Part shown: positions 22,435-40,059 of the stretch, one piece after another | Layout of the letters: each line of letters opens with the position of its first letter | Position numbering within the stretch: position 1 is the stretch's first letter | Assembly: GCA_964534375.1 (NCBI GenBank) | Contig: CAZHPN010000019.1 | Span: 1-49,906 of the forward strand | DNA from: an uncultured bacterium | GTDB lineage: Bacteria > Lernaellota > Lernaellaia > Lernaellales > Lernaellaceae | Direction of reading: 5' to 3' | Length of the DNA: 49,906 bases | Program-made: the position numbers and the translations under genes | Notes under the pieces: model-generated | What the model saw: only the letters and a program-made list of their open reading frames with translations | The model's database searches: none | Told to the model about the DNA's origin: nothing

Positions 22435-23433
22435 TCATTGCGATATCGCAAAACCGTTCGCGGTGACCTGCGGCGCGGACTTCTCGGGCACGGCGCACTC
22501 GAGATACCCGGGCGAGCCGCCGGTTGCCGCCGCCTCGTCGGGCAGGGGCGTCTTGGTCTCGCGCGCACGGAACGCGGTGGAGATCATCGCCTCGCCGGGC
22601 GACGCTGACGGGGGCGTCGCCGCGTCATCCCCGACGCCGTCGCGCGCACAGCGAAATCCGACCGTGTCGAGGCGCGCTTCCGCCGCAACCCGGAACCGGG
22701 CCGAGCCGCGCACGCCCCACGGGCCGTTGCTCCAGGACCCGCCGCGCAGCATCGGTTTCGCGCTCGACGACCACCCCTCCGGGTCGTTGGCGGACGATGG
22801 CGCGAAGTATTCGTCGCCATGCCAGTCCGCGCACCACTGCTCGACGTTGCCGAGCATGTCGTACAGGCCGTATGCGTTCGGTTGTTTCCGGCCCACGGGA
22901 TGGGTCCGACCGGCGGAATTGCTTTCGTACCACGCGATTTCGTCCAAGCCGCCGTATCGCGGTCCGTTGGTGCCGCCGCGCGCCGCGAATTCCCACTCCG
23001 CTTCCGTGGGCAGGCGCTTGCCGACTTTCGCGCAGTAAGTTCGGGCCTCGGCCCAGGTGACCCTTTCGACCGGGCAATCCGGACAACCGGAAAAACGGCT
23101 CGGATTCTCGCCCATCGCGGCCCGGAATTCCGCCTGGGTCACGACTGTCGCGTCCATCCAGAAACTCTTTACGGCGACTTCGCGCGCCGGCCCCTCTTCG
23201 CGGAAACAGCCGTAATCCCCCGGCGAACAGCCCATCATGAAGATCCCGCCGGGAATGGCGGCCATCCCCGGCGGCGCCTCGCCGGCGGCAACCAGCGCGG
23301 CGGTCAGCCAGGACGCGACGAGGAACGATGCGAACGCCCATTTGCTCGCCGCGCTTGCGTGCGCAGCACGGCGGCCGGCGCCGAGGCGCGAAGCGCCGGG
23401 CGATATGTTCCGGACGAGTCTCGAGGCGAACAT
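22435..23433 (-). CDS. Exported FGE-sulfatase (SUMF1-like) domain protein
   Basis: FMMG, PVERVTW, RLPTEAEWEFAARGG, NAYGLYDMLGNV, RGGSW, GFRC; hydrophobic N-terminal segment. Confidence 0.9.
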   Translation of the reverse strand: MFASRLVRNISPGASRLGAGRRAAHASAASKWAFASFLVASWLTAALVAAGEAPPGMAAIPGGIFMMGCSPGDYGCFREEGPAREVAVKSFWMDATVVTQAEFRAAMGENPSRFSGCPDCPVERVTWAEARTYCAKVGKRLPTEAEWEFAARGGTNGPRYGGLDEIAWYESNSAGRTHPVGRKQPNAYGLYDMLGNVEQWCADWHGDEYFAPSSANDPEGWSSSAKPMLRGGSWSNGPWGVRGSARFRVAAEARLDTVGFRCARDGVGDDAATPPSASPGEAMISTAFRARETKTPLPDEAAATGGSPGYLECAVPEKSAPQVTANGFAISQ

Positions 23434-24289: not shown

Positions 24290-26380
24290 ATGACCGAGTT
24301 TGCCGCGAAAACATTGTTGCGCGAACACGGCGTTGCCGCGCCGGCCGGCCGCGAGGTCGGCTCGCCCGACGAAGCGGCGGACGCCGCCGCCGAGTTGGGT
24401 TTCCCGATCGCGCTGAAGGTTTCGCATCCCGACCTCGCGCACAAGTCGGACGTCGGCGGCGTCGCCCTGGGCGTCGCGAACGCCGCGGCGGCCCGCGAGG
24501 CGGCGGCGCGTCTGCTGGCGCTGCGGGCGGGCGCGCGCGTGCTGGTCGAGGAACTGGCCCCCGACGGCGGCCTCGATCTGCTGGTCGGCTTCCGGCGCGA
24601 TCCCGTCTTCGGCCCGGTGTTTCTCGCCGGCCTCGGCGGCGTGTACGCCGAAATCTTCGCCGACGCCAGCCTGCACGTCGGCCCGCCGACCGCCGACGAG
24701 GCCCGCGCGATGCTGACCCGCCTGCGCGGCTACGGCCTGCTCGCCGGCGCCCGGGGCGGGGCGGCGCTCGACGTTGCCGCGGCCGTCCGCGCCTTGCTGG
24801 CGCTCGCCGAAATTGCCCGGCGGCGGCCGGAAATCTGCGAGTTCGACATCAACCCGTTGCGCGTCTACCGCCGCGGGGCGCTGGCTCTCGACGCGCTGGC
24901 GGTTCGCGGCGCGGCCGCGCCGGCGGCGGACGAGCGCGAGGCTTTCCCTGGCGACGATCGGCGCGGCATCCCGCACGCCGTCGACGCCGAACGCGCGCGG
25001 CTGAACTCGTTGTTCCGCCCGGCGGCGGTGGCCGTGGCCGGCGCGTCGACGACCGCCGAGAAGGCCGGAAATATCATCATCAAAAACCTGCGCACGTTCG
25101 GCTACGCGGGCGCGGTGTACCCGGTCAACCCGGCCGGCGGCGCGATCGAAGGGCTGCCGGCGTACACTTCGGTCGCGGCTTGCCCGCGGCCCGTCGAACT
25201 GGTCGTCGCCGCCGTGCCGCACCGGCAGGTCGAAGCGGTGATCGAAGACGCCGCCGCGGCCGGCGCGCGATATGCGATCGTGGTCTCCGGCGGGTTCGGC
25301 GGCGCCGGCCGCGAAGGCCGCCGCCGCGAGGCGCGGCTGGTCGAACTTTGCGCGCGGCGCGGCATCCGGCTGATGGGCCCGAACAGCATCGGGACGATCG
25401 ACGCGGTCTTCGGCTTCTGCGTGTCGATCGGCAAGCTGCCGCCGATGCCGCCGACCGGCGTCTCGCTGCTCGGCCAGACCGGCACCTTTTCGACGGGCTT
25501 TTCGCTCGAAGAAATCACCCGGCGCCGGCGCGGCTTCTCGAAAGTCGCCTGCCTCGGCAACAAGGCCGACGCCGACGAATCCGATTTCCTGGCCTACTAC
25601 GGCGACGATCCCGACACGCGGTGCATCGGCATGTACCTCGAAGGCGTCAACGACGGCCGCCGCTTCCTGCGGGCCGCGCGGCGGGCGGCGGGGCGCAAGC
25701 CGGTGGTCGCGCTCAAATCGGGCCGCACGGAACTGGGCGCCCGGGCGGCGGCCTCGCACACCGGCGCGCTGGCCGGGTCGGATGCGGTTTACGACGCCGT
25801 CTTTCGGCAAACGGGCATCCATCGCGTCGACGATTTCGGCGACTTTTTCGCCGTGCTGCGCGCCTTCGATCTGTGCCCCCTGCCGCGCGGCTGGCGCGTC
25901 GGCGTCGTGTCGATCACCGGCGTCGGTTGCGTGCTGGCCGCCGACGCGTGCGGCGAGTTCGGTCTCGAATTGGCGGCGATCGGCCCGGCGACGCAGGCGC
26001 GCTTTCGCGAACTTGCGCCGGATTGGGCGACGGTCGGCAACCCGGCCGACATCTGGTCGACGATTGAGCGCCTCGGGCCGCTGGACGCGTACGGCAAGAT
26101 GTGCGCCGCGATGATCGCCGACGACGCGGTGGACATCCTGCTGGTCGTCGCCGTGTTGCTCGAAGAAGGCCGCTTCGACGCCGCCGCGGCGATCGCCCCG
26201 GCGTTGGCCGCGCATCCCGGCAAACCGGTGCTCGCCTGCGCGCTCGGCGGTCGCGACGAACTGCTCGCGGAATTTCAGCTCGGCCTGGAATTGTCCGGCG
26301 CCCCGGTGTTTTCCGGTCCGCGCCAGGCGCTGCTCGCCGCCTCGCACCTTTGCCGCCGCGCCGAGACGGCGAAGCGGTGA
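24290..26380 (+). CDS. ADP-forming acyl-CoA ligase, ATP-grasp (beta) domain fused N-terminal to the CoA-binding (alpha) domains
   Basis: GFPIALK, HKSDVGGV, DPVFGP, DINPL followed by VAGAS, YPVNP, GPNS, GNKAD, ASHTGALAG, NPAD. Confidence 0.9.
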   Translation: MTEFAAKTLLREHGVAAPAGREVGSPDEAADAAAELGFPIALKVSHPDLAHKSDVGGVALGVANAAAAREAAARLLALRAGARVLVEELAPDGGLDLLVGFRRDPVFGPVFLAGLGGVYAEIFADASLHVGPPTADEARAMLTRLRGYGLLAGARGGAALDVAAAVRALLALAEIARRRPEICEFDINPLRVYRRGALALDALAVRGAAAPAADEREAFPGDDRRGIPHAVDAERARLNSLFRPAAVAVAGASTTAEKAGNIIIKNLRTFGYAGAVYPVNPAGGAIEGLPAYTSVAACPRPVELVVAAVPHRQVEAVIEDAAAAGARYAIVVSGGFGGAGREGRRREARLVELCARRGIRLMGPNSIGTIDAVFGFCVSIGKLPPMPPTGVSLLGQTGTFSTGFSLEEITRRRRGFSKVACLGNKADADESDFLAYYGDDPDTRCIGMYLEGVNDGRRFLRAARRAAGRKPVVALKSGRTELGARAAASHTGALAGSDAVYDAVFRQTGIHRVDDFGDFFAVLRAFDLCPLPRGWRVGVVSITGVGCVLAADACGEFGLELAAIGPATQARFRELAPDWATVGNPADIWSTIERLGPLDAYGKMCAAMIADDAVDILLVVAVLLEEGRFDAAAAIAPALAAHPGKPVLACALGGRDELLAEFQLGLELSGAPVFSGPRQALLAASHLCRRAETAKR

Positions 26381-26393
26381 ATAGAGGACGCCG

Positions 26394-27647
26394 TTGAACG
26401 TGACTGTCCGATCGTTGGCCCTGGGCGCGGCGCTCGTCGGCGTGCTGCTTGCGGCCGGCGCGTGCGCTTCCACCGCCGCGGTTCGCCCCGGCTCCCCGTA
26501 CGGGCCGCCGTACAGCTCCACCGACCAACGGCCCTGCCAATGCGACGAAAACGGCCCGCGAGGCGTCGGGCAATTTCAGGACGAGCCGGGCTGGCACGAG
26601 ATCGTGATCGACGGCACGCTCGTCGAATATTATCTGCCGCAGCCGGCGCCGGGCCGGCCGGCGGCGCCGCCCGAGTTGCTCGCGCTCATTCACGGCGCCG
26701 GCTTCTGCCATTTCGACGGCGCGGTCGAAGGCATTCACGATTGGCGCGATTGGGCCGACGCCCATAACTTCCTGCTCGTGGCGCCGGCGTTCGAGCGGCG
26801 CTACGGGCCGCTGTACATCGAAGACAATTATCCGTACGGCCGCCGCGGCTCGGCCGTCGCCAAACGCTACGCCGACAGCCCGTGCGCCTGCGCCATGGAA
26901 GGGCAATGCGAACAGTTCGCGCGCTATCGCGAGCACCACTGGTTTCCGTGGGGCTATCGCGCGCCGCGCGACTATCTGTGGAACTACATCTTTCTCGTCA
27001 CGCCGCACGGTCAACGCACCGACCGTGAGCTGAATCGCGTCATCCGCCAGTTTCGCGCCCATTACAACCTGGGCGAAGAACGGTTCAGCATTTTCGGCTA
27101 TTCCGGCGGCGGCCAGTACATCGCCCGCTACATGATGTTGCATCCGAACAACCTGAAACGCGTGGCGCTGGGCGGCAGCGGCAGCTTTCTCTTCCCGACG
27201 GCGGATCGAAAATACCCCTTTGGGATGGCCGGCGACGTCGGCGAAGAACGCTTCACCGCGGCCGAATGGGACGCCAAGCTCGCCGCGATGCTCGGCCTGC
27301 CGGTGCTGATTTTCGCGGGCGGAGCGGATTTCGTCGGCGCCGGCGAACATCCGGAGTCCGCCTGGCAGGGGACCGGCCAACTGGCGATCGCGCAGAATTT
27401 CGTCCAGGCGCTCGAACGGGCCGACGGCCGGCTGCGCGCGGCCGGAAAACGGCCGCTGGACGCGTCGTTCAATTGCCGCTTGATTCCGTTCCCCGCCAGC
27501 GACCACGGCGGCGCCTACCACGATGCGGTGGTCTGGCTGCAAGAACATTGGCTGCCGGCCAAAACACCGCCGGCCGAGGCGCCGGCAGGGAATCTGCTCG
27601 AGCGCACGCCGGAACCGGCGAACGCCGGCGGGAATCCCGGGAAATAA
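26394..27647 (+). CDS. Exported (lipoprotein-like) alpha/beta hydrolase, esterase/depolymerase-like
   Basis: GAGGA RBS before TTG; AGAC lipobox-like; LIHG, GYSGG nucleophile elbow, candidate Asp (GGAD) and His (DHGG). Confidence 0.78.
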   Translation: MNVTVRSLALGAALVGVLLAAGACASTAAVRPGSPYGPPYSSTDQRPCQCDENGPRGVGQFQDEPGWHEIVIDGTLVEYYLPQPAPGRPAAPPELLALIHGAGFCHFDGAVEGIHDWRDWADAHNFLLVAPAFERRYGPLYIEDNYPYGRRGSAVAKRYADSPCACAMEGQCEQFARYREHHWFPWGYRAPRDYLWNYIFLVTPHGQRTDRELNRVIRQFRAHYNLGEERFSIFGYSGGGQYIARYMMLHPNNLKRVALGGSGSFLFPTADRKYPFGMAGDVGEERFTAAEWDAKLAAMLGLPVLIFAGGADFVGAGEHPESAWQGTGQLAIAQNFVQALERADGRLRAAGKRPLDASFNCRLIPFPASDHGGAYHDAVVWLQEHWLPAKTPPAEAPAGNLLERTPEPANAGGNPGK

Positions 27648-27704: not shown

Positions 27705-29657
27705 CTACTTTTCCCGCGGATCGCGATACGCGGCGTCGCGGCGCAACAAGAAACGGTTATACGCGAGGAGATCCTGGCCGAATTCGAAGAGGTCGTCGGT
27801 CGAGCCCGACGCCGGCAGCGGGGCGATCGCGTCGTCGTGGAACAAATCGCCCTCGGCGCGGAAGCAAAAGCGCGGACTCTTGCCGGCGGTCTTGGCGGCC
27901 GACAACTGAAACGCCGGCGGGACGTCGGAGTTGTGCGCGACTTCGTAACAGTAATCCGCGCCGCGCCGGATATTCCACTGATAATCGCGCGTCATGAACG
28001 TCGGCCGCGCTTCGCCAGGTTTGACGCGCAGCAGGCTGCGGCCGACGAAGGCGTTCGGCGCGGTCAGGCCCAGCAGATCCATGATGGTCGGCGCGATGTC
28101 GACGTGCGCGCCCTGCACGTGCAGGCGGCCGACCGGCGCCAGGCCGCTGGGCGTATGAATCAGGCACGGCACGCGGTAGAAAACATCCTCTTTCCGCTGC
28201 GCGCTCAGCGGCGGATCGTCCGGATAAAACCGCACCCCGTGGTCGCCGGTGATCACCAGCACGGTGTCTTGAAACCACGGCTTTTCGCGCAAGCCGGCGA
28301 GCAACCGGCCGACCGCGTAATCGGTGTAATAAATGCCGCGGCGGTAGTTGCCGTAATCGCCTAAATATCGCCGGCCGGGCAGTTCGTCGTCGGTCGGGTA
28401 TTTCTGCGTGAACGGATAATGGTTCGACAACGACAGGACCTCGGCGTAGAACGGCTTCGGCGAACGGTCGAGCGTATCGACGGCCATGCGGAACAGGTCT
28501 TCGTCGGCGGGGCCCCAACCGATTTTCGTGTAACCGATTTTCTCGAGATCGGCGATGTCGTGGAACTGCTGGATGCCATGGCGTTCCAGAAATCCGCGGG
28601 CGTGCGCGAATTCACGGCTGTAAGAATTGATCCACATCGTCGTGTAGCCGCGTTCGCCGAGAATGCTCGGCAGGCATGGCAAATGATTTCTTGCGAAATC
28701 GTTGAAGATCGTGCCCGAATTCGCAAATTCGTAAACCGAGCAATTGATCGCGGACTCGGCGCGCACCGTCGTATGGGCGTTCGCGTAGTACGAATCGACC
28801 ACCAGCGATCGTTGGCCGAGTTCGTCGAGCACGGGCGTCAACGATTCGGCCGCGCCGTACAGGCCCGACTCGAAGGCCCGCACCGATTCCAGAATCAACA
28901 CGATGACGTTCATCTGCCGGAAATCCGGCGCCGGCGCCAGGGGGGCTTTGCGCAGCCGCGCGCGTTTGCCGCGGTCGAAGCGGTACAGATCGGCGTCCAG
29001 CGGATAGTAATGTTCGATGGCGCCGTCGACGCGGGCGATGCGGGCCTGGCGCGTCGGCAAATAAAAGCTGATCCGCTCCATCGCGGGCTCGCGCAGCAAG
29101 AAGAGCAGCGGCTGGTTCTGCGCGCGCAAATAGGGATAAACGGCCGTCGCTTCGAACACGAGTTCGGCGGTCAACGCGAGCGCTGCGAAAAAGATCACCG
29201 CCGAACGGCGGCGAAAGCCGTCGGCGGAGCGCAGCGCGAACGGCAGCAGCGCCAGCGGCACGGCCAGGCCGAACACGATGTCGCCGGCGTGCAGCAGATG
29301 CCCGAAGCTGCTGGCCAGGCCGCTGACGTCGCGCCACTGCGAGAAAATCGCCGGCGTCGGCCAGGTTTGATAAAAGCGATAGTAGAATTGGAAACCGATC
29401 TGGCAGGCGGCGAGCAGGGCGCCGCACGCGAACGCGAGCGGCCAGCGAATCCAGGCGACGCGCGGCAGCAGCAGGAAAACGAGGGCCGTTAAGGCCGCGA
29501 ACGTGAACAGGTCAACGAGTTGCAGCGCGTCGAACGGCTCGCCGAGGCCGATCCAACCGTACAGGCCGAGCGCGAGGCCGAAGCCGAACAGACCGAACGC
29601 GAGGCCGGCCCGGCCGGCAAAATCCTCCGTGGTTTTCGGCGTCGGCGCCGCCGCCAT
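27705..29657 (-). CDS. LTA synthase (LtaS/OpgB) family membrane sulfatase-fold phosphotransferase
   Basis: AAGGAG RBS; about 5 N-terminal TMs; NVIVLILES, HTT (Thr nucleophile), SNHYPF, YTD, TGDHG, DIAPT. Confidence 0.88.
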   Translation of the reverse strand: MAAAPTPKTTEDFAGRAGLAFGLFGFGLALGLYGWIGLGEPFDALQLVDLFTFAALTALVFLLLPRVAWIRWPLAFACGALLAACQIGFQFYYRFYQTWPTPAIFSQWRDVSGLASSFGHLLHAGDIVFGLAVPLALLPFALRSADGFRRRSAVIFFAALALTAELVFEATAVYPYLRAQNQPLLFLLREPAMERISFYLPTRQARIARVDGAIEHYYPLDADLYRFDRGKRARLRKAPLAPAPDFRQMNVIVLILESVRAFESGLYGAAESLTPVLDELGQRSLVVDSYYANAHTTVRAESAINCSVYEFANSGTIFNDFARNHLPCLPSILGERGYTTMWINSYSREFAHARGFLERHGIQQFHDIADLEKIGYTKIGWGPADEDLFRMAVDTLDRSPKPFYAEVLSLSNHYPFTQKYPTDDELPGRRYLGDYGNYRRGIYYTDYAVGRLLAGLREKPWFQDTVLVITGDHGVRFYPDDPPLSAQRKEDVFYRVPCLIHTPSGLAPVGRLHVQGAHVDIAPTIMDLLGLTAPNAFVGRSLLRVKPGEARPTFMTRDYQWNIRRGADYCYEVAHNSDVPPAFQLSAAKTAGKSPRFCFRAEGDLFHDDAIAPLPASGSTDDLFEFGQDLLAYNRFLLRRDAAYRDPREK

Positions 29658-29702: not shown

Positions 29703-30992
29703 TTACCGGCCGTCGAGCAAGCCGTCCTTTTCGAGATCGCGGACGATCGCCCGCGCCGCGAGCGCGTGGCCCGCCTCGTTCAGGTAGTAGTCGTCTTCCA
29801 GGGTCGTCGGATACTCGCCGCCGTCGCGGAAATCCGGCAGCAGCGAATGGATCGGAAACGCGACGGTCGCCGCCTGCCGCGCGAAGTAATCGAAGACTTC
29901 CCACAGGTGCTCGTCGCTTTCCGGAACCAGCATTTTCCGCGGATCTTTCGGCGATTCGCGGCGATTGTATTGCTGATAACACGGGAGGATAAACAGCGCG
30001 TACTTCGCGCCGAGGCTCGCCGCGACGGCCTGCGCGTCGCGGATCGCTTCCCAGGTCGCCGCGAAAAACGGCTCCGCTTGGCTCAGGGGCATCCACATGA
30101 AGAAGTACTCATTGCCGATATCGGAGTTGCGCGGCGTCGTCGTCGGCACGGCGCGGCCGCTCGGGATTTCCCCGGCCGCGATCTTCCAGGCGAAATTGTC
30201 GCGCAGAAAACCGAGGAAGTCGTCGACGCCCAGTGCGCGGCTCAACAGCGCCTCCGCGGCCCCCGGCAGCGATAGCCGTTCGGGATGCAACAGGCCGGCA
30301 TCCTGCAGTTTTTTCACGGCGACGACGTCATGGTAAAAATCCGGCATTTCGAATATTTGCACGACCAGCCGCGGATGATAGTTGGCGCCGATCTGCCGCA
30401 ACTGCCGCAATTCCAGCGCGGGGCTGGCCGCTTCCCAGGCGAAGTTCGCCACGCGCCAGGCGCGACGCGGCTCGCGTTCGCCCAGCAATTTTTCGACGAC
30501 GAACGGAAACGCGCTGCGATCGTCCCGCAGCCACACGCCCTGCGTGTAACCGTCGCCCAGAAATATGACATTGTCGCCGCCGGCGCGATACTGCCGCGCC
30601 GGGGCGTCTGGCGCGACGCCGTCGGCGTTGCGGTGACCGGCCAGCGCCGCCGGCCGGTGGTCGATCGGCAGATTGTAAAACGAGGCCGTAAGCCGCGGCA
30701 TGAGGATCGGCCGCGCGAAGTGCAACGCCAGCGCGGCCGCCGCTGCACCGGCCGCGAGCGCCAGGGCGAACCGCGGCCGTCCGAGCAGGAGACCGGCGCC
30801 GCGCAGGGCGACGAGCGGCAGCCAGACGACGAGCACCTGGCAGAGGCGCAGCAGAATTTCCTGGCGATTCGAATACAAGACGAGCGACAGCGCCAACGCA
30901 ACGAGAAACGGCGCGAAGAGCAGCAGCGTCAGCCCGGCCGGCGATCGCCGCCACGTTCGTTCCGTCGTCACTTCGCCGTTTTCCGCCGCCAT
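29703..30992 (-). CDS. Membrane-anchored SGNH-fold protein with substituted catalytic residues (GDG, DDYY)
   Basis: Colinear paralog of 31021-32337 (shared YNL..DHR, AFPF, YHP.LVVQ.F, FFMW.PL.QAEPFF, YQQYNRRESPKD); block I FLGDGYTQG, block V EDDYYLNEAGH. Confidence 0.85.
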   Translation of the reverse strand: MAAENGEVTTERTWRRSPAGLTLLLFAPFLVALALSLVLYSNRQEILLRLCQVLVVWLPLVALRGAGLLLGRPRFALALAAGAAAAALALHFARPILMPRLTASFYNLPIDHRPAALAGHRNADGVAPDAPARQYRAGGDNVIFLGDGYTQGVWLRDDRSAFPFVVEKLLGEREPRRAWRVANFAWEAASPALELRQLRQIGANYHPRLVVQIFEMPDFYHDVVAVKKLQDAGLLHPERLSLPGAAEALLSRALGVDDFLGFLRDNFAWKIAAGEIPSGRAVPTTTPRNSDIGNEYFFMWMPLSQAEPFFAATWEAIRDAQAVAASLGAKYALFILPCYQQYNRRESPKDPRKMLVPESDEHLWEVFDYFARQAATVAFPIHSLLPDFRDGGEYPTTLEDDYYLNEAGHALAARAIVRDLEKDGLLDGR

Positions 30993-31020
30993 CGATCCGC
31001 CTCGCGCCGCGGCCCGACCG

Positions 31021-32337
31021 TCACTTGAGCGGGTCGAGCAAGCCGTCGGCCGTCAAATCACGGAGCATCGCCCGCGCCGCGATTTTGTGGCCGGTTTCGT
31101 TGATATGAAAGTCATCCTCGAACGTCGTTGGGAATTCGCCGCAAGTCTGGTAGTCGCGCAGTAAGTGATGCACGGGAAATTTCGCTCCGACGGCCTGCCG
31201 CTCGAAATAACGAAAGACGCCGAACAGGTAGTCGTCGTTCGGCGGAATCTGCCCCTTTTTCTTGTCTTTCGGGCTCTCCCGGCGATTGTATTGCTGATAC
31301 CGCGGCAAAACGAAAAAGGCGAACTTCGCGCCCTGGCTCTTGGCGGTTTCGTAGGTCTCGTTAATCGCCTGCCACGAGTATTTGAAAAACGGCTCGGCCT
31401 GTTCGAGAGGGATCCACATGAAGAAAAACTGGCCTTCGAACCCCGAAAGATGGTGCGCCGGTTTGGGCGTCACGATCTCGCCCGACAGGTCGAGAGCGGT
31501 TTGCAGCGCCGGGAGCGCCATTTTTTCCTTGAGGTATTGCACAAAGTCGTTGGTCCCCAAGAATAGGCTGAACCGGACCAGCATCGCCCGGGAAATCGAC
31601 AGCTCGGTCGGATGTTCCAGATCCGCGCGGCGCAGCCGGTTCGTGTAGTCGACGTCGTCCTGGAAATCGGTCATGTCGAAGACCTGGACGACCAGCTTCG
31701 GGTGGTACTTCCAGCCGATCTGCTTCAATTGCCGGTTTTCCAGCACGGGACTGGACGAACTCCAGCCGAAATCGGCGACGCGAATGTGTTTGTCCGGATG
31801 CTGGGCGCGCAACTGCTGCTCGATCAGGAAGGGAAACGCCTGCTTTTCCGGGTGGTCGAGGCCCAGACCCTCGGTCATGGAATCGCCGAGAAATATGATG
31901 TTGAAATCCTCAGGCCGGTAGGCGCTGGGCGGCACGTCGGGCTTGATCCCGTCTTCGTTGAGAAATCCGGGCAGCGGCTTGTTGCGATGATCGACGTCGA
32001 GGTTGTAGAGCGGCAAGACCAATTTGTGCAGCACCACCGGCCCGACCAGGTGCAACGCCAGCGCCGATAGCGCGGCCGAGCCGAGAAAAACCAATGTCTG
32101 CTTCCAGTGTTTGCGCAACACCGGCAGTTTCCAAAGAACATACACCGGCGCCCAGACCACGGCGATCTGAAAAAATTGCCGGGCGACTTCCTTGCGATTC
32201 TTGAAAACGATCAGCGAAATCACGAGAGCCGCTACGAACGGCCCGCCCGCGCGCAAAGCCAGCGCCAAGCGCGGATTTCGCAGGCGTCGGAGTCCAAACG
32301 GGCGGGATCTTTCGCTGTTCACGATTCCTCGCGGCAA
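31021..32337 (-). CDS. Membrane-anchored SGNH/GDSL hydrolase or O-acyltransferase
   Basis: Three N-terminal TMs; FLGDSMTEG and EDDFHINETGH intact; start uncertain. Confidence 0.85.
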   Translation of the reverse strand: MPRGIVNSERSRPFGLRRLRNPRLALALRAGGPFVAALVISLIVFKNRKEVARQFFQIAVVWAPVYVLWKLPVLRKHWKQTLVFLGSAALSALALHLVGPVVLHKLVLPLYNLDVDHRNKPLPGFLNEDGIKPDVPPSAYRPEDFNIIFLGDSMTEGLGLDHPEKQAFPFLIEQQLRAQHPDKHIRVADFGWSSSSPVLENRQLKQIGWKYHPKLVVQVFDMTDFQDDVDYTNRLRRADLEHPTELSISRAMLVRFSLFLGTNDFVQYLKEKMALPALQTALDLSGEIVTPKPAHHLSGFEGQFFFMWIPLEQAEPFFKYSWQAINETYETAKSQGAKFAFFVLPRYQQYNRRESPKDKKKGQIPPNDDYLFGVFRYFERQAVGAKFPVHHLLRDYQTCGEFPTTFEDDFHINETGHKIAARAMLRDLTADGLLDPLK

Positions 32338-32359: not shown

Positions 32360-33910
32360 TCATCCGGGTTCGTCCGTCGCCGTCGTCATTTTCGACGGGC
32401 ATTCCCACACACCCATTTGCGGATGCGCCGGCGGGTATTCCGGCCCCTCCGCCCAATTGACGCGCAGCAAGCTGCGGTCGTGGTAGATCGTCGCCGTGCA
32501 GCCTTCGACGAAGCGGCCGTACGTGTCAAGCGCGTGGTTGTCGAAATCCACCTGGTTGAGCACGACGGCGTACGAACTGACGGGCGGCTCGCGCATCGTG
32601 TAGTAGTCGTCGTAAACCCGGTTCGGACCGAGGACGTAGATCACCTGCCATTTGTTGCCAGAACTGATCAACACGCGTCGATAACGATCGGCGACCGAGC
32701 GCAGCGTCGCCATCGCCAGCTTCTCCGGATCGGGTTGCGGCAGATGGCGATAGTAGCGAAATTGCCGCGCGAAACTCTGCACGATATCCCGTTGGGCGTG
32801 CAGTCCCGGCAGCAGCCCGACCAGCACCACCAGCGGCGCCGCCGCCCACGCCCGCCAGCGGGTCAGCAGGGCCAGGCCGCGCGCCGCGACGAGCGCGCCG
32901 AGGGGCAGCATGTGCATGATGTAACGCCGGTTGAAGCCCGACCCCGGCGCAAAAATTTTCTCCGGCACGATTGCGACCAGGGCCAGCGAAACCAACGCGA
33001 CGGCGGCCGGAAAATAGGATCGCTCCGCGAGCGACAAGGGAATCGCGCCGAGCAAGAACAAATACGGGAAATAGACCCAGCAGTCGCGCAGGCCGATTTG
33101 CCAGTGCCAGGCGACGGCGGCGAGGCTATACGGCAGATCCGCCGTCATCGAGCGGCCGATGCTGAAAAACACGACCCACGGACCGATCAGCACGAGGCAG
33201 CCGAGCAGGATTTTCGGCCACGGCGGCGAGAGAATCGCCGGCCGGCCGCGATGCTTCGCCCAGACCCACGGGACGACATCGACAAGCGCCAAGCTGGCGA
33301 ACAGAATGCCGCAAATGAACTGCGATGAGTGGAAAAGCAGCAGTGCGGCGACGCTGAGCGTCGCCCAATGCGCCCGACCGCGTTTGATCAATTGATGCAA
33401 CCAAAGGGTTCCGGCCGTGAACAACAACACCAACGCGTAGTAGCGTGTCTGGCGGCAATACTGCAAGAACGCCGGATTGACGGTCAGCAGCAGCCCCGCC
33501 AGCAAGCCGACGGCGCGCCCGTACAGCAGCCGCCCCGCGAAAATCAGCGCCACCATCGCCAGGCCGCCGGCGATCGTGAACGGCAGGCGCGCGGCGAGTT
33601 GGCTTTCGCCGAATAGCCGAAAACTGGCCGCGCAAATGTAGAATGACAGCCAGCCGTGCGCCGCCTCCACGCCGAGCGCGTTCTTTGAATAGAAAAAATC
33701 TTCGATCGAATGCTTGCCATACATGGCCAGCGGCAGGCCGGTGTGAAGAACGTTTTGCGCCAGCAGCGTATGACCGGCCTCATCGTTCCAGTAGGCGATC
33801 TCGCCGAGGCCTGGCAGCACGAGGTAGAAAAACAGGCCGACGAGCGCCGCGACGCCGGAATAGAACAAAGCGTCGGGCAGAACGGCCGATTGGCGGTCAG
33901 AATCCTCCAT
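32360..33910 (-). CDS. GT-C glycosyltransferase (ArnT / PMT_2 family)
   Basis: WNDE in first loop, FGESQLAARLP, RQTRYYAL, RRY; multiple TMs; start may be 33967. Confidence 0.85.
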   Translation of the reverse strand: MEDSDRQSAVLPDALFYSGVAALVGLFFYLVLPGLGEIAYWNDEAGHTLLAQNVLHTGLPLAMYGKHSIEDFFYSKNALGVEAAHGWLSFYICAASFRLFGESQLAARLPFTIAGGLAMVALIFAGRLLYGRAVGLLAGLLLTVNPAFLQYCRQTRYYALVLLFTAGTLWLHQLIKRGRAHWATLSVAALLLFHSSQFICGILFASLALVDVVPWVWAKHRGRPAILSPPWPKILLGCLVLIGPWVVFFSIGRSMTADLPYSLAAVAWHWQIGLRDCWVYFPYLFLLGAIPLSLAERSYFPAAVALVSLALVAIVPEKIFAPGSGFNRRYIMHMLPLGALVAARGLALLTRWRAWAAAPLVVLVGLLPGLHAQRDIVQSFARQFRYYRHLPQPDPEKLAMATLRSVADRYRRVLISSGNKWQVIYVLGPNRVYDDYYTMREPPVSSYAVVLNQVDFDNHALDTYGRFVEGCTATIYHDRSLLRVNWAEGPEYPPAHPQMGVWECPSKMTTATDEPG

Positions 33911-34217
33911 TGAGACTATTTCGCACAGTCGCTTCGGCGACGCAACGTCGGCGGCAGGGCATTCCATGCAGTTGCCGCCGGCACGCGCACCCCGTTGCCA
34001 TTGCTGAATTCAGCGGCCGAGCGGAAAATGCGCCCGCGCTTTTCGGCCCCGATTTCCTCTTGCGGGCGAATCGAGATTTCGTGCGCCGACGCATTCCCAG
34101 AGCTCCGCGAACGATCGACCCTGGACGCGCGCCCCGTTCTGGGTATTTTATAGGAAGTTGGATTTCGCCGCCGGTCGGCGTCTATCGCGTCGCGCCGGCG
34201 AAAATTGGGGCGTGTTG

Positions 34218-36257
34218 GTGAAACCGGAAATCGCCGCCGCGTTGTTCGCACCGCTGGCGGAACAACTCAAAGAGTGCGGCATCTCCGCCGACCGCTGGCT
34301 GGAGCCGGACCCGCACGGCAAACCGATCGCGCTGACCGACCGCCAGTGGATCGACGAAAACGTGTTTCGCGAAATCATCGCCGTGCTGATCGAAACCGGC
34401 AACGAAGAGCGGCTGGCGACGGCCGGCGCGCGGATGCTGGCGGACGAATCGGCCGGCCTGGGCGGCCTCTTGCTGCCGTTCGTCGAAACGCCCCTGGATT
34501 TGTTGGCGGCGCTGGTCGAACACGTCAATTTCAACGCGCGCACGTTGCGGCTCGCCGTGCAGCAGGGCGCGAAGAAACACACCGCCGTGCTGACGTTGAC
34601 CTCGGCGCTGAAGCGGCCGGCGCCGCCGGTGTTGTGCCGGTGGCTCGACGGCCTGCTGGCCGCGGCGCAACAAGCGGCGGGCGGGTTCGAGGTCGTGCAG
34701 CAGGAGTGCATGTTCGGCCTGGTCGAAAAGCGAGGCGCGCCGGCGGCCGGCGCGAAGGGCGAGGGCGAGAACCGCGCGTGCGTGTACGCGGTGCGGTGGA
34801 ACGCGGGGAGTTTGACGAAATGGTTTTCGTCGCCGCGCCGGCTGCGCGCCGCGCGCGAAAATCTGGCCAAGGTGCGCAAAGTGCTGGCGCAGCAAAAGCA
34901 CAGTCTGAATGAGGCGCAGGGCGCGATTCGGCAACAGGAAGCGTTGGTCCAGGGCATCGTTTCGGTGTCCGAGGCGGCGAAGACCGCGCGCACCTATCGC
35001 GATTTGATTCACATGACCGCGAACCGGATTTGCGCGGATTTCGGCTTCGACCGCAGCCAGATTTACCTGGCGCGCGAGGGGCAGTTGGAAATCGTTTCCG
35101 TGATCGATCCGAGCGACACCAACTGGGCGCAGACCGTCTTTGCGGTCTGCCAGGCGAACCCGATCGCGCTCGACGATCGCACGGAAGAGGCGCGCTCGTT
35201 CGCGTCCGGCAAGCCGGCGATCGTCAACAATCCGTGGAACAACATCGCCGTGCCGCCGGCGCAGCAGGAAGCGTGGAAGTCGCGGGGCTACGTGATCGTG
35301 CCGATCCGCGGCGCGGACCGCTTCATCGGGCTGATGCTGGCCGACCATTACTACAAACGCCGGGCGATCGAAACCGACGACGTCGACAAGCTGCAGGCGC
35401 TGGCGAACATCAGCGGCATGGGCATCGAGAAATTGCGGTTGATCGACAAACTCGAGGCGAAGGTGTCGGACCGCACGGCCGAATTGGAACGGGCCAACAA
35501 AAAATTGCTGGCGCTCTACGAACGGGCGCGCGAATCCGATCGCACCAAGAGCGCCTTTCTGGCGAACATGAGCCACGAACTGCGCACCCCGCTCAACGCG
35601 ATCCTCGGTTTTTCGAAGTTGCTGCTGCGCGGCTTCGACGGCCCGGTCAACGAGCGGCAGCAGACGGACATCAACGCCATTCTCAATTCCGGCACGCATT
35701 TGCTGGGCCTGATCAACGATATCCTCGATCTGTCGAAGATCGAATCGGGCCGCATGGATTTGAAGATGGAGAACTTCGCGCTGCACGAGGTCGTCGCCGA
35801 GGTGAAAACGTCGGGCCAGGTGCTGCTCAAGGACAAGCCGATCGCCATGCAGACGCAACTCGACCCGGACCTGAAAACCGTCTACGGCGACCGGACGCGC
35901 GTGCGGCAGGTGCTGCTCAACCTGGTGAGCAACGCGATCAAATTTACGGCGAAGGGGCAGATCACGATCACCACGAAGGCCGGCCGCGACGAATACTACA
36001 TCGCCGTCGCCGACACCGGCGTCGGGATCGCGGCGGACAAGATCGACATGGCGTTCGAACGCTTCCGGCAAATCGACTCGGGCCCGAGCCGCATGCAGGG
36101 CGGCAGCGGACTTGGATTGACGATCAGCAAGAAGTTTGTTGAGATGCACGGGGGACGGATTTGGGTGGCCAGCGCGGAAGGCGTCGGCTCCACCTTCCAT
36201 ATCGCCATGCCGTACCGGAAGACAACCGACAAGGCGGGTCCATCCGACGGAGCCTAG
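34218..36257 (+). CDS. Cytoplasmic sensor histidine kinase: V4R/H-NOX-like N-domain, coiled coil, GAF, HisKA, HATPase
   Basis: FLANMSHELRTPL, NLVSNAIKFT, DTGVGI, GSGLGL; GAF (IVPIRG...GLMLAD); N-terminal LCRWLDGLL...EC...CVYAVRW; start may be 34158. Confidence 0.9.
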   Translation: MKPEIAAALFAPLAEQLKECGISADRWLEPDPHGKPIALTDRQWIDENVFREIIAVLIETGNEERLATAGARMLADESAGLGGLLLPFVETPLDLLAALVEHVNFNARTLRLAVQQGAKKHTAVLTLTSALKRPAPPVLCRWLDGLLAAAQQAAGGFEVVQQECMFGLVEKRGAPAAGAKGEGENRACVYAVRWNAGSLTKWFSSPRRLRAARENLAKVRKVLAQQKHSLNEAQGAIRQQEALVQGIVSVSEAAKTARTYRDLIHMTANRICADFGFDRSQIYLAREGQLEIVSVIDPSDTNWAQTVFAVCQANPIALDDRTEEARSFASGKPAIVNNPWNNIAVPPAQQEAWKSRGYVIVPIRGADRFIGLMLADHYYKRRAIETDDVDKLQALANISGMGIEKLRLIDKLEAKVSDRTAELERANKKLLALYERARESDRTKSAFLANMSHELRTPLNAILGFSKLLLRGFDGPVNERQQTDINAILNSGTHLLGLINDILDLSKIESGRMDLKMENFALHEVVAEVKTSGQVLLKDKPIAMQTQLDPDLKTVYGDRTRVRQVLLNLVSNAIKFTAKGQITITTKAGRDEYYIAVADTGVGIAADKIDMAFERFRQIDSGPSRMQGGSGLGLTISKKFVEMHGGRIWVASAEGVGSTFHIAMPYRKTTDKAGPSDGA

Positions 36258-36272
36258 CGGAAGCGACGGGCA

Positions 36273-37376
36273 ATGAAGAGCATCTTGTACATCGAAGACA
36301 ACGTGGAAAACAAACTGCTGGTGCGGCGGCTGTTGCAAGGCTCCGGGTACCAGGTCATCGAGGCCAACGACGGCCTCGACGGCATCGAGGTGGCGATCAA
36401 GCGCCGGCCGGATTTGATCATCATGGACATCAACTTGCCCGGCATGGACGGCTACGAAGCGACGACCAAAATCAAGGCGGTCGATGAACTGGCCAAGGTC
36501 CCCGTCGTCGCGCTTACCGCCTACGCGATGAAAGGCGACCGCGAGCGCTGCCTCGCGGCCGGCTGCGACGGCTATCTGCACAAGCCGATCGACCCCGACA
36601 CCTTTGTCGCCACGATCGAAGAGTTCCTGTACGGCCGCCGCGAGACCATCGCGCCGGACGAACAACTGCACTACCTGAAGAAATACAGCCAGCAGCTCGT
36701 CTCCCGCCTGGAAGAAAAGATTCGCGAACTGCTGCGCAAGAACGAAGAACTGGAGACCAAGAGCCGCGAGACCGAAGAGATCTACATCGGCATCATCGCC
36801 TCGCTGACCGTGGCGATCGAAGAGAAGCATCCGTCGACGGCCGGTCATTCGCAGCGCGTCACGCAATATGCCCTGGCGATCGGCGAAGCGATGGGACTCT
36901 CGAAGCGCGAACTCAAGGCGCTGCGGCGGGCGGCGATGCTGCACGACGTGGGCAAACTCGCCGTCGAGCTGTCGGCCATCGACAAGCCCGGCCGGCTGGG
37001 AGACGACGAGTGGACGACGATGCGCCGGCACCCGGACATCGGCGCGAAGATCCTCGAGCCCCTCAGTTTCCTGCAGCGCGAGATCGAGATCATCCGCAAC
37101 CACCACGAACGGCCGGACGGGCAGGGCTATCCGCGCGGCCTGTCGCAGGAACACCTCGATTTGCTCACGGGCATCCTCACCGTCGCCGACGCCTTCGACG
37201 CCATGACCAGCGCGCGGGCCTACAAACCGGCGATGGACGTCGAACAGGCCGTCGAGCATCTGCGGCGCGGCCGCAGCACGCAATTTCAGGCCGAAGTAGT
37301 CGACGCCTTCGTGAAGCTCCTGCGCAGCGGCGCGCTCGACGTCACGTTGAGCGCCGCCGGGCAGGCGGGCCATTGA
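36273..37376 (+). CDS. Response regulator with HD-GYP c-di-GMP phosphodiesterase domain
   Basis: REC (YIEDN, IMDINLPGMDG, LTA, KP); HSQRV, LHDVGK, HHERPDGQGYP, VADAFDAMTS. Confidence 0.93.
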   Translation: MKSILYIEDNVENKLLVRRLLQGSGYQVIEANDGLDGIEVAIKRRPDLIIMDINLPGMDGYEATTKIKAVDELAKVPVVALTAYAMKGDRERCLAAGCDGYLHKPIDPDTFVATIEEFLYGRRETIAPDEQLHYLKKYSQQLVSRLEEKIRELLRKNEELETKSRETEEIYIGIIASLTVAIEEKHPSTAGHSQRVTQYALAIGEAMGLSKRELKALRRAAMLHDVGKLAVELSAIDKPGRLGDDEWTTMRRHPDIGAKILEPLSFLQREIEIIRNHHERPDGQGYPRGLSQEHLDLLTGILTVADAFDAMTSARAYKPAMDVEQAVEHLRRGRSTQFQAEVVDAFVKLLRSGALDVTLSAAGQAGH

Positions 37377-37556
37377 CCGGTTTCGGAAGACTTCTACTGC
37401 AACAGGGCGTAGCCACCGGCGAATGATTGGCGGATCGGCTCCGCCTGCGGTCGGGCTCCGCCAGCGGTTTGACGTGCAACTTCGGCATCGGCACTGGGCC
37501 GGAAGCGCAACACTCGGATGCTGGTCGCGTTGTCCACACAGACGCGGCGAATTTTC

Positions 37557-37580
37557 TTGCAAATTCAGCTTGATTTGCAA
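37557..37580. promoter_or_regulatory. Palindromic operator-like site upstream of ftsB
   Basis: TTGCAAAT-N8-ATTTGCAA perfect inverted repeat in an AT-rich intergenic patch. Confidence 0.45.
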
Positions 37581-37633
37581 ACATAATTCAGGTAAAGAAT
37601 GAGGCAATTTTCAACGGGCGCCGGGTTGTTCGT

Positions 37634-37927
37634 ATGGTGCGCAAAGCGGTGATCTTCCTGACCGTTTTTGTGATCGGGGCCGCGGCTTATCTCGTCCTGA
37701 GCGAAAACGGTCTGTATCACGTGCAGCGGTTGCAGCGCGAGAAGGCTGCTTTGGAGCACCGCATTGCGCTGTTGCACCAGCAAAAATCGGATTACGAGGC
37801 CAAGATCGTCCATCTCACCAATGACGCGACCATCGTCGAACGCGAAATCCGCTCGCAACTCAAATACGTACGCGACGACGAAACCGTCTTTGTCGTTTCC
37901 GAGACTACGCCGACCGGGGCCCCTTAG
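37634..37927 (+). CDS. ftsB: Septum formation initiator FtsB/DivIC
   Basis: Short N-terminal TM, ENGL, leucine-zipper coiled coil, IVEREIRSQLKYVRDDETVF. Confidence 0.85.
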   Translation: MVRKAVIFLTVFVIGAAAYLVLSENGLYHVQRLQREKAALEHRIALLHQQKSDYEAKIVHLTNDATIVEREIRSQLKYVRDDETVFVVSETTPTGAP

Positions 37928-40059
37928 TGGGCCGGCTTGCCCTTCGCCTGCTTGCGGAACTCGCCCGCTTTTACACCACGATCATTTGCCTGGCGTATCT
38001 CGCGTTGGCCGCGCTCGGCCTGTTTTCCGCCGACCGCGTAATTCTGCGCGGCCCGACGCCGGGGATGATTGCGCTGTTCGGCTTGCTGCTCTTCCTGCTT
38101 GCCTGGCGGATCGCCGTGCTCGCGCTGGCCCCGCCGGGGAAGTCCCGCGCCGCCGACCGCGTCGAACTCGCGGTCGTGATCCAGGTCATCGTGATGATCG
38201 TGCTGCAGGTCACCGGCGGGCTCGACAGTCCCATTTTTCCGCTATTCTACCTCGGTTCCGCGATGATGGTGTACTTCCTCGATTTCTTGCCGAGCCTGGC
38301 GATTGCGCTCGCGGCGCTGATCGTCTTCGCCGTCAACGTCGGCTTGGAAGCGCGCTGGGCCGACCATTGGGCCCAGCTCTCCGCGGCCGTCGGTTTCGCC
38401 GTGGTGTTCAACCTGGCCATCGCCGCCTTCATCAAGGGTCCGCGGGAGCGCGCGCAACGGACGCAGACGACGCTCGACCGCCTGACCGCCGAGGCCGAAC
38501 GGGCCGCCCGCGAGCGCTCCACCGGCGCCTCGGCCCTCTCGCGCGACCGGCTGGCGCGCTCGGATCTGGGCGCGCTGCTGCAAGTCGATCGCGTGCTCGG
38601 CGATCTGGCCGATCTCGCGAAGCGCGCGTTGTCGGCCAGCGCGAGCGTGATCGCGATGGTCGGCGACGAGCCGGATTCGCTGGTCGTGCGCGCGGTCGCC
38701 GCCGACGAACAACCGCCGGCGAACTATCTCGGGGCCGAAGTCGGACAAACGGTGCTCGCCGAGGCGCTGGCCGCCGGCGGGACGATCCGCCTGGCGAAAC
38801 TCGACGGCGAATTGCGCGGCCGGCGCCGGCATCGCGATTGGGGGCAAAAGCCGAAGTCGCTGGCGGCGTCGCCGCTGGTCGAGGCCGACCGCATCATCGG
38901 CGTCATCGCGGCGGACAGCCAATACGAGGACCATTTCGGCCGCGAGGAGGAGCGGTTTCTGGCGATGATGGCCCGGCAGGCGGCGGCGGCGATCGCGCGG
39001 GAGCGCCTGTACCGCGACGTCTCGACCGAGCGGGCGGAGTTTGCGGCGTTTTACGACCTGATCAAGAAAATGGGCGCCTCGATCGAACTGGATACGGTCA
39101 GCCGGGTGATTCTGGAATCGGTGCAGGACGTGGTGGGCTACGATTACGGCGTGCTGGTGCGGGTCGATCTGGAATTGCGGCAGGGCGCGATCGAAGCGGT
39201 CGCCGGGCTGCCCGAGGAGACGTGGCGCGGCGCGACGATTTCGCTGCCGGACAGCCTCGTCGGCTGGGTGATCGGCTCGAAGACCTATCTGCATTACCCG
39301 GATTTGCGCGACCGCGCGCATCCGACCGAGCGCCGCCGGCCGGTGTTCAGCCGCGAACTCTCGATCAAGGATCTGGGCAGCCTGCTGTGCCTGCCGCTGG
39401 TTCGCCAGAATTTTGTGACGGGCCTGCTGGTGTTCGGCGCGACCGAGGCCAACGCGTTCACGAATTACGAGATCAAGATTCTCGAAGTGGTCGCCGTGCA
39501 GGCGGGGGTGAGTCTCGAAAATGCGCGCGTTCACGCCGAAATGGAGAAGCTGGCCGTATCCGACGGCCTGACCGGCTGCTTTAACCACCGCTACTTTCAG
39601 GATTGGCTCGAATCGGAAATTCAGCGCGCGGTGCGCATGCCGATCGCCATCAGCATGGTGCTGTGCGACATCGACCACTTCAAGAAATTCAACGACACGT
39701 ACGGCCATCCGCTCGGCGACCAGGTGCTGAAGACCGTCACCGGCGTATTTCGCGCCAACGTGCGCAAGAACGACCTCGCGGCGCGGTACGGCGGCGAGGA
39801 GTTCGCCCTGGTGCTGCTCAACAGCGATCGCCGCAGCGCGGTCAAATTCGCCGACCGCGTGCGGCAGGCCGTCGCCAAGACGAAAATCGACTTCGCCGGC
39901 GAAAAACTCGGCGTGACCGTAAGCATGGGCGTCGCGACGTTCCCCGACGACGCCCGGGAAAAGGCCGCGCTGATCGAACTTGCCGACAAGGCGCTGTACG
40001 CGGCGAAGCAAGGCGGCCGCAACCGGGTGGTGCATGCGCAGGAGTTGACGAGCGGGTGA
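37927..40059 (+). CDS. dmxA: Membrane diguanylate cyclase TM-GAF-GAF-GGDEF (DmxA-like architecture)
   Basis: N-terminal TMs (TGGLDSP), two GAFs, DGLTG, DIDHFK, I-site RKND, A-site GGEEF; GTG overlaps the ftsB stop by 1 nt. Orthology to dmxA is inferred. Confidence 0.85.
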   Translation: MGRLALRLLAELARFYTTIICLAYLALAALGLFSADRVILRGPTPGMIALFGLLLFLLAWRIAVLALAPPGKSRAADRVELAVVIQVIVMIVLQVTGGLDSPIFPLFYLGSAMMVYFLDFLPSLAIALAALIVFAVNVGLEARWADHWAQLSAAVGFAVVFNLAIAAFIKGPRERAQRTQTTLDRLTAEAERAARERSTGASALSRDRLARSDLGALLQVDRVLGDLADLAKRALSASASVIAMVGDEPDSLVVRAVAADEQPPANYLGAEVGQTVLAEALAAGGTIRLAKLDGELRGRRRHRDWGQKPKSLAASPLVEADRIIGVIAADSQYEDHFGREEERFLAMMARQAAAAIARERLYRDVSTERAEFAAFYDLIKKMGASIELDTVSRVILESVQDVVGYDYGVLVRVDLELRQGAIEAVAGLPEETWRGATISLPDSLVGWVIGSKTYLHYPDLRDRAHPTERRRPVFSRELSIKDLGSLLCLPLVRQNFVTGLLVFGATEANAFTNYEIKILEVVAVQAGVSLENARVHAEMEKLAVSDGLTGCFNHRYFQDWLESEIQRAVRMPIAISMVLCDIDHFKKFNDTYGHPLGDQVLKTVTGVFRANVRKNDLAARYGGEEFALVLLNSDRRSAVKFADRVRQAVAKTKIDFAGEKLGVTVSMGVATFPDDAREKAALIELADKALYAAKQGGRNRVVHAQELTSG

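Follow-up and report, generated by a model that had tools for sequence, protein, structure and literature searches.

The closest described parallel to the gene reported here comes from plants. The GDSL protein MVP1/ERMO3/GOLD36 (At1g54030) carries Gly at the position of the catalytic Ser, and a G59S variant was made to 'introduce the catalytic-centre residue'; the protein is described as a pseudoenzyme without lipase activity that is retained for a non-lipase role (PMC3498303, PMC4757993). By one count, dead enzymes make up 3 of the 116 A. thaliana GDSL sequences (PMC4757993). Here we describe a tandem pair of genes, A and B, in a 49,906-nucleotide stretch of DNA (the window) from an uncultured bacterium of the Lernaellaceae (contig CAZHPN010000019.1 of assembly GCA_964534375.1). 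Both genes encode proteins of the SGNH fold, B with an intact active site and A with Gly and Tyr at the positions of the catalytic Ser and His. We propose that A is a catalytically dead paralog of B, which arose by a lineage-specific tandem duplication and was retained by selection for a non-catalytic job, and we put the probability of this reading at roughly 0.6.

A resembles MVP1/ERMO3/GOLD36 in having Gly at the catalytic Ser position of a GDSL/SGNH-family protein. In contrast to A, the plant protein is eukaryotic, soluble and part of the secretory pathway, belongs to a different SGNH subfamily and does not stand in an operon tandem with an active copy. A also goes beyond it, having lost the His, an invariant Arg and block II and III residues as well. 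No bacterial pair of an active and a dead SGNH protein was found in the literature searched, which yielded plant pseudoenzymes and general reviews only, and A is so far a new, singleton, bacterial case of the dead-GDSL kind known from plants.

A second comparison is offered by AlgJ, AlgX and the DHHW protein PatB1, which, like the family of A and B, are SGNH-like, which face the envelope, as A and B probably do, and which act on glycans. The S337A exchange abolished the activity of the SGNH enzyme BcPatB1, whose oxyanion hole is formed by an invariant Arg and is disabled in Arg359 variants; the SGNH-like paralogs AlgJ and AlgX serve a single pathway in distinct, non-redundant ways, and the AlgX and DHHW acetyltransferases are marked by a D-x-H-W block V and an oxyanion-hole Arg (PMC9487903). 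B and its family have the D-x-H-W type of block V, the only feature shared with AlgX, and the family has an invariant Arg of its own. Unlike A and B, which have the canonical S...H order with block I at residue 148/153 and block V at residue 403/411, AlgX and the DHHW proteins are circularly permuted (H-S-G-N), and unlike A, both AlgJ and AlgX retain the catalytic triad. The A/B family is not part of the DHHW group, since its FLGDSFT, NFGWxSSSP and DDPHWN blocks stand in canonical order. The Pfam model ALGX (PF16822) did not match A or B at E ≤ 0.1 and did match several of their relatives, two with scores that exceed the cut-off. No MBOAT or acyltransferase-3 partner turned up among the genes of the window. 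TesA, EstL5, Axe2 and DltD have the same SGNH fold as A and B. Compared with the classical SGNH hydrolases and DltD, to which identity is 9-16%, the A/B family adds a membrane anchor, a segment before the SGNH domain, a helical insert and a block III Thr. DltD is itself membrane-anchored and works beside an LtaS-made polymer.

The A/B pair and its active sites

The two genes and the diagnostic codons of A are located as follows.

29703-30992, minus strand: gene A, a 429-amino-acid membrane-anchored SGNH-fold paralog without catalytic residues, intact open reading frame (ORF)
31021-32337, minus strand: gene B, a 438-amino-acid paralog with intact active site (433 amino acids if the start is the GTG at 32322), ORF
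30549-30551, minus strand: GGT codon for Gly148 of A, which takes the place of the block I nucleophile, in GGC GAC GGT (G-D-G), read from the sequence
29784-29786, minus strand: TAC codon for Tyr403 of A, which takes the place of the block V His, read from the sequence
29979-29981, minus strand: Cys338 codon of A, at the family-invariant Arg (98-99% conserved) after strand beta-4, coordinates computed from the ORF start

In a BLASTP alignment, 185 of 419 residues of A and B are identical (44%), with 3 gapped positions and E = 2e-122, and the two proteins are colinear from the membrane region to the C-terminus. This likeness is far beyond chance. An earlier note on this DNA had described the genes as colinear duplicates with GDG/DDYY in A, GDS/DDFH in B and conserved neighbouring blocks, and the codons were indeed found at the positions it gave. 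Block I of B reads GGC GAT TCC (G-D-S, with TCC at 31879-31881) and its block V GAT GAC TTT CAT (D-D-F-H, with CAT at 31105-31107), while block V of A reads GAC GAC TAC TAC (29784-29795, D-D-Y-Y), with Asp401 retained and the His replaced by Tyr403. The YQQYNRRESPKD block has the same letters in both proteins, and both have the FFMW(I/M)PL(E/S)QAEPFF block, quoted in the earlier note as FFMW.PL.QAEPFF. The letters of block V were likewise correct; the position of its acid needed adjustment, as the conserved acid of the family lies two residues before the His (D-P-H-W) and not three.

Compared with the family consensus, A carries the substitutions Ser148Gly, Gly185Ala, Asp215Glu, Thr217Pro, Arg338Cys and His403Tyr, and B is intact at these positions and at the block V Asp (Ser153, Gly191, Asp221, Thr223, Arg346, Asp409 and His411). 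The Gly-Asp-Ser nucleophile of block I and the Asp...His of block V (Asp409, His411) are thus present in B and absent from A (GDG, Tyr403). With Ser, His and the invariant Arg all replaced, A is a pseudoenzyme in the sense of an enzyme-family member whose catalytic residues are missing, and from the established SGNH mechanism it would be expected to have no esterase or transferase activity.

B itself departs from the family at two positions: residue 189 (31771-31773) is Asp where 97% of the family, and A, carry Asn (the N-F-G-W block II), and residue 396 is Tyr in place of a 97%-conserved Phe. Because of these deviations (Asn189Asp and Phe396Tyr), the activity of B is assumed rather than certain. 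The GTG at 32322 has GAGGA upstream and matches a 433-amino-acid database form (P0002); judged from these signals, it is the more likely start of B. A has a GAGG motif 7 nt before its ATG. The GC content at the three codon positions is of coding type (0.71/0.46/0.82).

Models of both proteins were predicted with AlphaFold2 (AF2) and display the three-layer alpha/beta/alpha SGNH fold, which makes A and B members by fold; the predicted local distance difference test score (pLDDT) and the predicted TM-score (pTM) are 89.9 and 0.86 for A and 89.8 and 0.84 for B. Three hydrophobic helices precede the domain, all within residues 16-97 in A and likewise in the first ~100 residues of B, and these helices are also found in the two models. 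Since the N-terminus is positive and the number of helices is odd, the SGNH domains of A and B probably face the periplasm. The best PDB matches of both models in Foldseek were the SGNH hydrolases CgnD (8a2n), TesA, EstL5, DltD and Axe2 (probability 1.00, 9-16% identity), with TM-scores by target of 0.54-0.75 for TesA, EstL5 and CgnD; a search of the PDB by sequence gave no match for A or B. B matches Pfam Lipase_GDSL (PF00657) with 28.4 bits, above the cut-off of 23.6, and the only Pfam match of A is Lipase_GDSL_2 (PF13472) with 18.2 bits, below the cut-off of 32.9.

The block residues of B follow or lie in the core strands of its model:

Strand E145-150, then Asp152-Ser153
Strand E185-189, then Phe-Gly191-Trp
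Strand E213-221, ending in Asp221-Met-Thr223-Asp224
Strand E338-344, then Pro-Arg346
Strand E409-412, holding Asp409-Phe-His411

By these strand ends, the block II Gly corresponds to Gly191 in B and Ala185 in A. The position of the block III Asn is occupied by Thr in 75-81% of the family, by Thr223 in B and by Pro217 in A.

Among 1.84 billion cluster representatives, a profile of A and B found 1045 proteins at E ≤ 1e-3, of which 165 reached E ≤ 1e-30. The following residue counts refer to the 150 best family representatives, aligned. Ser and His are both present in 142 of the 150. Five representatives are fragments without block I, P0080 ends before block V, and P0126, a 1603-amino-acid fusion, has Ala and His. 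The combination of Gly and Tyr occurs in A alone, and A is the sole representative without both Ser and His. Counted by column, 145 sequences cover the position of the block I nucleophile, 142 of them with Ser, and 148 of the 150 that were aligned have the block V His. None of a further 18 relatives has lost Ser, the invariant Arg or His (18 of 18).

The family has a signature of its own. It consists of a D-x-D-H-R ... N-x-D-G segment before the SGNH domain, the blocks FLGDSFT, NFGWxSSSP and DMTDF, with Thr replacing the block III Asn of classical SGNH enzymes, an L-P-R after strand 4, and D-D-P-H-W-N as block V. A three-helix membrane anchor and a helical insert of ~75 residues are added to the fold. 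The D-x-D-H-R ... N-x-D-G segment lies between the third membrane helix and the SGNH domain (B residues 114-130 and A residues 109-125, about 31948-31998 and 30618-30668); conservation of its His, Asn and Asp is 97-98%, and the segment persists in A as well as in B. To our knowledge no role has been described for this segment, which could cap the pocket or bind a metal.

The architecture of the family varies. About 30 of the 150 best matches are ~600 amino acids long, with a 200-residue N-terminal extension; in P0073 (1033 amino acids) the SGNH domain is fused to a Phosphodiest domain of the alkaline-phosphatase superfamily, and in P0126 it is joined to DUF7133, HEAT and cytochrome c domains. 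Records of the family are labelled Planctomycetota, Myxococcales, Deltaproteobacteria, Holophagae, Pseudomonadales and Cellvibrionales. The family is uncharacterised, widespread and membrane-anchored, and may deserve study itself.

Age of the duplication and constraint on A

A and B group as sisters in a careful 32-row tree (ultrafast bootstrap 99; Shimodaira-Hasegawa-like approximate likelihood ratio test, SH-aLRT, 98) and in a quick tree of 41 rows (SH-aLRT 97), with P0004 and P0151 forming the next clade beside them. Their sister position marks the duplication as lineage-specific, and the saturation of synonymous sites marks it as old: identity at third positions is 45%, and the same codon is used at 102 of 182 identical residues, compared with 85 predicted by codon usage alone. 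Exact nucleotide matches between the two genes extend over 20 nt at most, so that recent gene conversion has not taken place. A pairwise ratio of nonsynonymous to synonymous substitution rates for A and B was rejected as meaningless in view of the saturation.

At conserved columns, the losses of A are concentrated in the catalytic blocks. A retains 26 of the 30 columns that are at least 90% conserved, and the four lost are Ser148Gly, Asp215Glu, Arg338Cys and His403Tyr. In the B model, each of these four positions coincides with the C-terminal end of a core strand or directly follows it. The fraction of sites changed in the A lineage declines from the least to the most conserved bin (59%, 31%, 31%, 18% and 16%; chi-square p = 0.009), the two extremes being 13 of 22 sites changed where conservation is lowest and 4 of 25 where it is highest. 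When catalytic blocks were defined as windows of ±4 residues around the block I, II, III and V residues, A-only losses at columns at least 70% conserved amounted to 8 of 23 in the blocks versus 2 of 49 outside (Fisher p = 0.0012), while B-only losses amounted to 1 of 23 and 4 of 49, respectively. The frame of A is intact over 429 codons. In substitution-only neutral simulations, frames were still open in 3% of cases at 80% amino-acid identity, in 0.5% at 64% and in 0 of 400 at 53%.

This is the pattern of a catalytic site that was released from constraint or re-shaped some time ago in a protein whose fold stayed under selection, and it appears to fit a maintained dead paralog better than a decaying gene. 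The suggestion of the earlier note that A is maintained and not decaying is therefore supported within the family by the old duplication, the open frame, the conservation gradient and the block-clustered losses; it is not proven.

A number of observations weigh against this reading. The end branch of A is about twice as long as that of B in the 32-row tree (1.09 versus 0.53), and 48 of 161 sites with a supported ancestral state changed in A compared with 25 of 138 in B; relative-rate tests of A against B were significant with 3 of 7 outgroups and reversed with 1. A has drifted towards Gly, Ala, Arg and Pro (19 gains, 8 losses), which make up 37% of A compared with 27% of B, as weaker constraint gives in a GC-rich genome. 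The block clustering of its losses weakens at a threshold of at least 50% conservation (8 of 27 versus 14 of 92, p = 0.099), and the ±4 windows were picked after the alignment was seen. The block positions were assigned from strand ends in the AF2 model and are positions in secondary structure, not measured distances. Ala at block II is also found in P0155, which retains Ser and His, and is hence not diagnostic. Finally, the A/B pair is a singleton in current databases.

The comparison with related genomes adds to these points. With residues 140-429 of A as query, a collection of 5.8 billion proteins contained no relative of A above 50% identity, the best match being B (48% over the domain), followed by relatives at 45%. 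For B, no relative above 50% identity was found in the databases searched, and its best matches were A and P0004 (48% each). The 90% cluster of B comprises 3 sequences, and A is carried by 3 contigs; the source lineage is simply unsampled. A and B have no known orthologs. A genome scan with a 7-row alignment gave 26 loci, 21 of them with strong matches, and each of these 21 has one family gene with GDS and His; no tandem pair was found in the 21 related loci, flanks included, and the operon context of A and B is not conserved there, the neighbours varying by locus. A genome-contig scan with the A and B alignment matched 93 stretches, none of which was a relative.

In one of the related loci (L013, 7659-9236, from a metagenome-assembled genome labelled Deltaproteobacteria), the family gene is split over four overlapping ORF pieces in different frames, which is either a real decaying copy or an assembly indel.

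Some of these observations would also be expected if A were in early decay, that is, if it had been active for nearly all its history, had recently lost Ser and His in this strain or species and had no function now. No ortholog shows that the dead state is conserved, the A branch is long, the residues gained by A are those with GC-rich codons, and long open frames arise easily at ~65% GC, as illustrated by a 544-amino-acid antisense ORF at 25914-27548. However, six conserved catalytic-block positions and the invariant Arg have changed, compared with 0 of 21 other reconstructable columns at least 90% conserved, and a uniform neutral decay giving 8 of 23 losses in the blocks predicts far more than 2 of 49 outside. 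A is without stop or frameshift, is colinear with B to the last helix and has an AF2 model as confident as that of B. As several active-site residues have changed, a recent inactivation after a long active life is unlikely, and we favor retention of A as a dead paralog over early decay.

The operon and possible partners of A

A and B lie between two genes for membrane enzymes, and a terminator-like hairpin follows the last gene.

32360-33967, minus strand: first operon gene, a 535-amino-acid membrane glycosyltransferase of PMT_2 (GT-C, ArnT-like) type; Pfam PF13231, E = 7.8e-11, 42.9 bits, cut-off 26.1
27705-29657, minus strand: last operon gene, a 650-amino-acid membrane protein with an LtaS-type (alkaline-phosphatase superfamily) outer domain; Pfam Sulfatase E = 2.4e-39
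27567-27588, minus strand: terminator-like hairpin after the last operon gene, 8 pairs (7 G-C) and a T-rich tail, a consensus match in a region that gave 19 such matches compared with 9.5 expected from shuffles

The order on the minus strand is PMT_2-type gene, B, A and LtaS-like gene, with gaps of 22, 28 and 45 nt, and the four genes are probably co-transcribed. The LtaS-like protein matches two NCBIfam models, that for LtaS at 2.9e-30 and that for phosphoglycerol transferase I at 9.3e-15, in each case far short of the equivalog cut-off, as well as the outer domains of a lipoteichoic acid primase and synthase (LtaP 4uop, 1.4e-25; 2w8d, 1.4e-24). Its LES, T-T and GDH positions align, with Glu, Thr and Asp-His in place, and its gene has AAGGAG before the ATG.

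The most economical reading of this arrangement is a non-catalytic role of A in the pathway of its operon. In the likeliest model, B would remove or transfer an acyl group on a periplasmic glycan or lipid-linked intermediate, which the two flanking enzymes of PMT_2 and LtaS type would also modify. A retains the fold and, it seems, much of the pocket, in which an acyl-enzyme could not form; it might thus be a binding, holding or organising subunit, possibly paired with B. Both the substrate class of B and the contact of A with B are what we infer from this context.

The earlier note had suggested A as a polymer-binding, scaffold or regulatory partner of the active copy, and the heterodimer that it brought up was modelled. 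The predicted A-B complex scored 0.40 (0.40, 0.40 and 0.42 in the individual runs) compared with 0.00 for the best of 3 controls, at least 67% of the contacts agreed between runs, and the partner pLDDT was at least 80. In the calibration of the complex score with 157 solved complexes and 215 mismatched pairs, 116 of the former and 2 of the latter reached the mark, and passes at 0.60 or under comprised 18 of the 157 solved complexes and both passing mismatches; these counts hold only roughly here, as custom alignments were used for the prediction. Since a self-associating paralog family would give the same score, the value of 0.40 is not specific to the pair. A specific partnership of A with B is possible, and the model lends it weak support.

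A bolder version of this proposal, which we regard as speculative and rather doubtful, is that A and B form an obligate inner-membrane hetero-oligomer in which the dead A would hold a glycan or lipid-linked substrate or gate its access to the live B. The pair would then be the acyl-editing module of an undescribed four-enzyme periplasmic machine for envelope modification, consisting of the GT-C glycosyltransferase, the SGNH pair and the LtaS-type phosphotransferase, in a poorly sampled diderm lineage.

Conversely, A could be maintained and non-catalytic and yet not be a partner of B: it might cooperate with one of the flanking enzymes, LtaS-like or PMT_2, or be a binding protein in its own right. 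A is located directly upstream of the LtaS-like gene, the relative P0073 combines the SGNH domain with one from the alkaline-phosphatase superfamily, and GT-C type membrane glycosyltransferases recur loosely near relatives (GT87, YfhO and a weak GtrII in L009, GT87 in L005 and a weak PMT_2 in L001). However, these links belong to active family members and not to A itself, and the PMT_2 and LtaS-like proteins of the window have no clear counterparts in the 26 loci, where the only resemblance is two weak sulfatase-family matches on the other strand (L010 and L018). We therefore hold such a role apart from B to be unlikely.

That A is still an enzyme, with a pocket rebuilt for a different chemistry or nucleophile, is quite improbable: pocket-side residues (Gly146, Asp147, Asn183, Ser190, Pro191, Asp218, Asp222 and Asp401) and the D-x-D-H-R and N-x-D-G motifs before the domain are retained, and the divergence of A from B peaks in the helical insert that separates blocks III and IV (20-27% identity), as a change of ligand would give, but no substitute nucleophile or base is evident, the Thr at +2 of block I is the family norm and not a gain, the Ser, His, invariant Arg, block III Asp and block III Thr have become Gly, Tyr, Cys, Glu and Pro, and loss of the Ser alone abolishes activity in SGNH enzymes that have been studied (PMC9487903).

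Further genes of the window lie around the operon. Directly upstream and divergent from it (plus strand, 34158-40059) are three signalling genes, whose products are a histidine kinase of GAF type (34158-36257), a response regulator that carries HD_5/HD (36273-37376) and a diguanylate cyclase with GGDEF and two GAF domains (37927-40059); such cyclic-di-GMP-type neighbours may hint at control linked to exopolysaccharide or biofilm. Convergent on the operon end is a 417-amino-acid ORF (26394-27647, plus strand), whose product may be an exported alpha/beta-hydrolase esterase: it shows a lipoprotein-like signal (…LLAAGAC…) together with G-Y-S-G-G as a motif, and it matches a model of PHA depolymerase only weakly (E = 0.003). 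A gene with an FGE-sulfatase (formylglycine-generating enzyme-like) domain (22435-23433, minus strand) lies ~4 kb from the LtaS-like 'Sulfatase' gene, and a functional link between the two is doubtful, because the LtaS-like protein aligns with enzymes that have a Thr nucleophile. The window contains a third GDSL-like protein of 534 amino acids (44644-46248, minus strand; Lipase_GDSL_2, E = 2e-8), which was rejected as a member of the A/B family since it did not match the family profile.

Meaning for the SGNH family

If selection does maintain A as a dead subunit, the GDSL pseudoenzymes of plants would have a bacterial counterpart in it, and A would offer a natural way into a membrane-anchored SGNH family that is uncharacterised. 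The comparison of the live with the dead copy points to the residues that the chemistry of this family needs, namely Ser, His, the invariant Arg and the block III Asp and Thr. Should the obligate hetero-oligomer of A and B prove true, it would be the first bacterial pair of an active and a dead SGNH protein, and its family comprises more than 1000 such membrane-anchored proteins, all uncharacterised.

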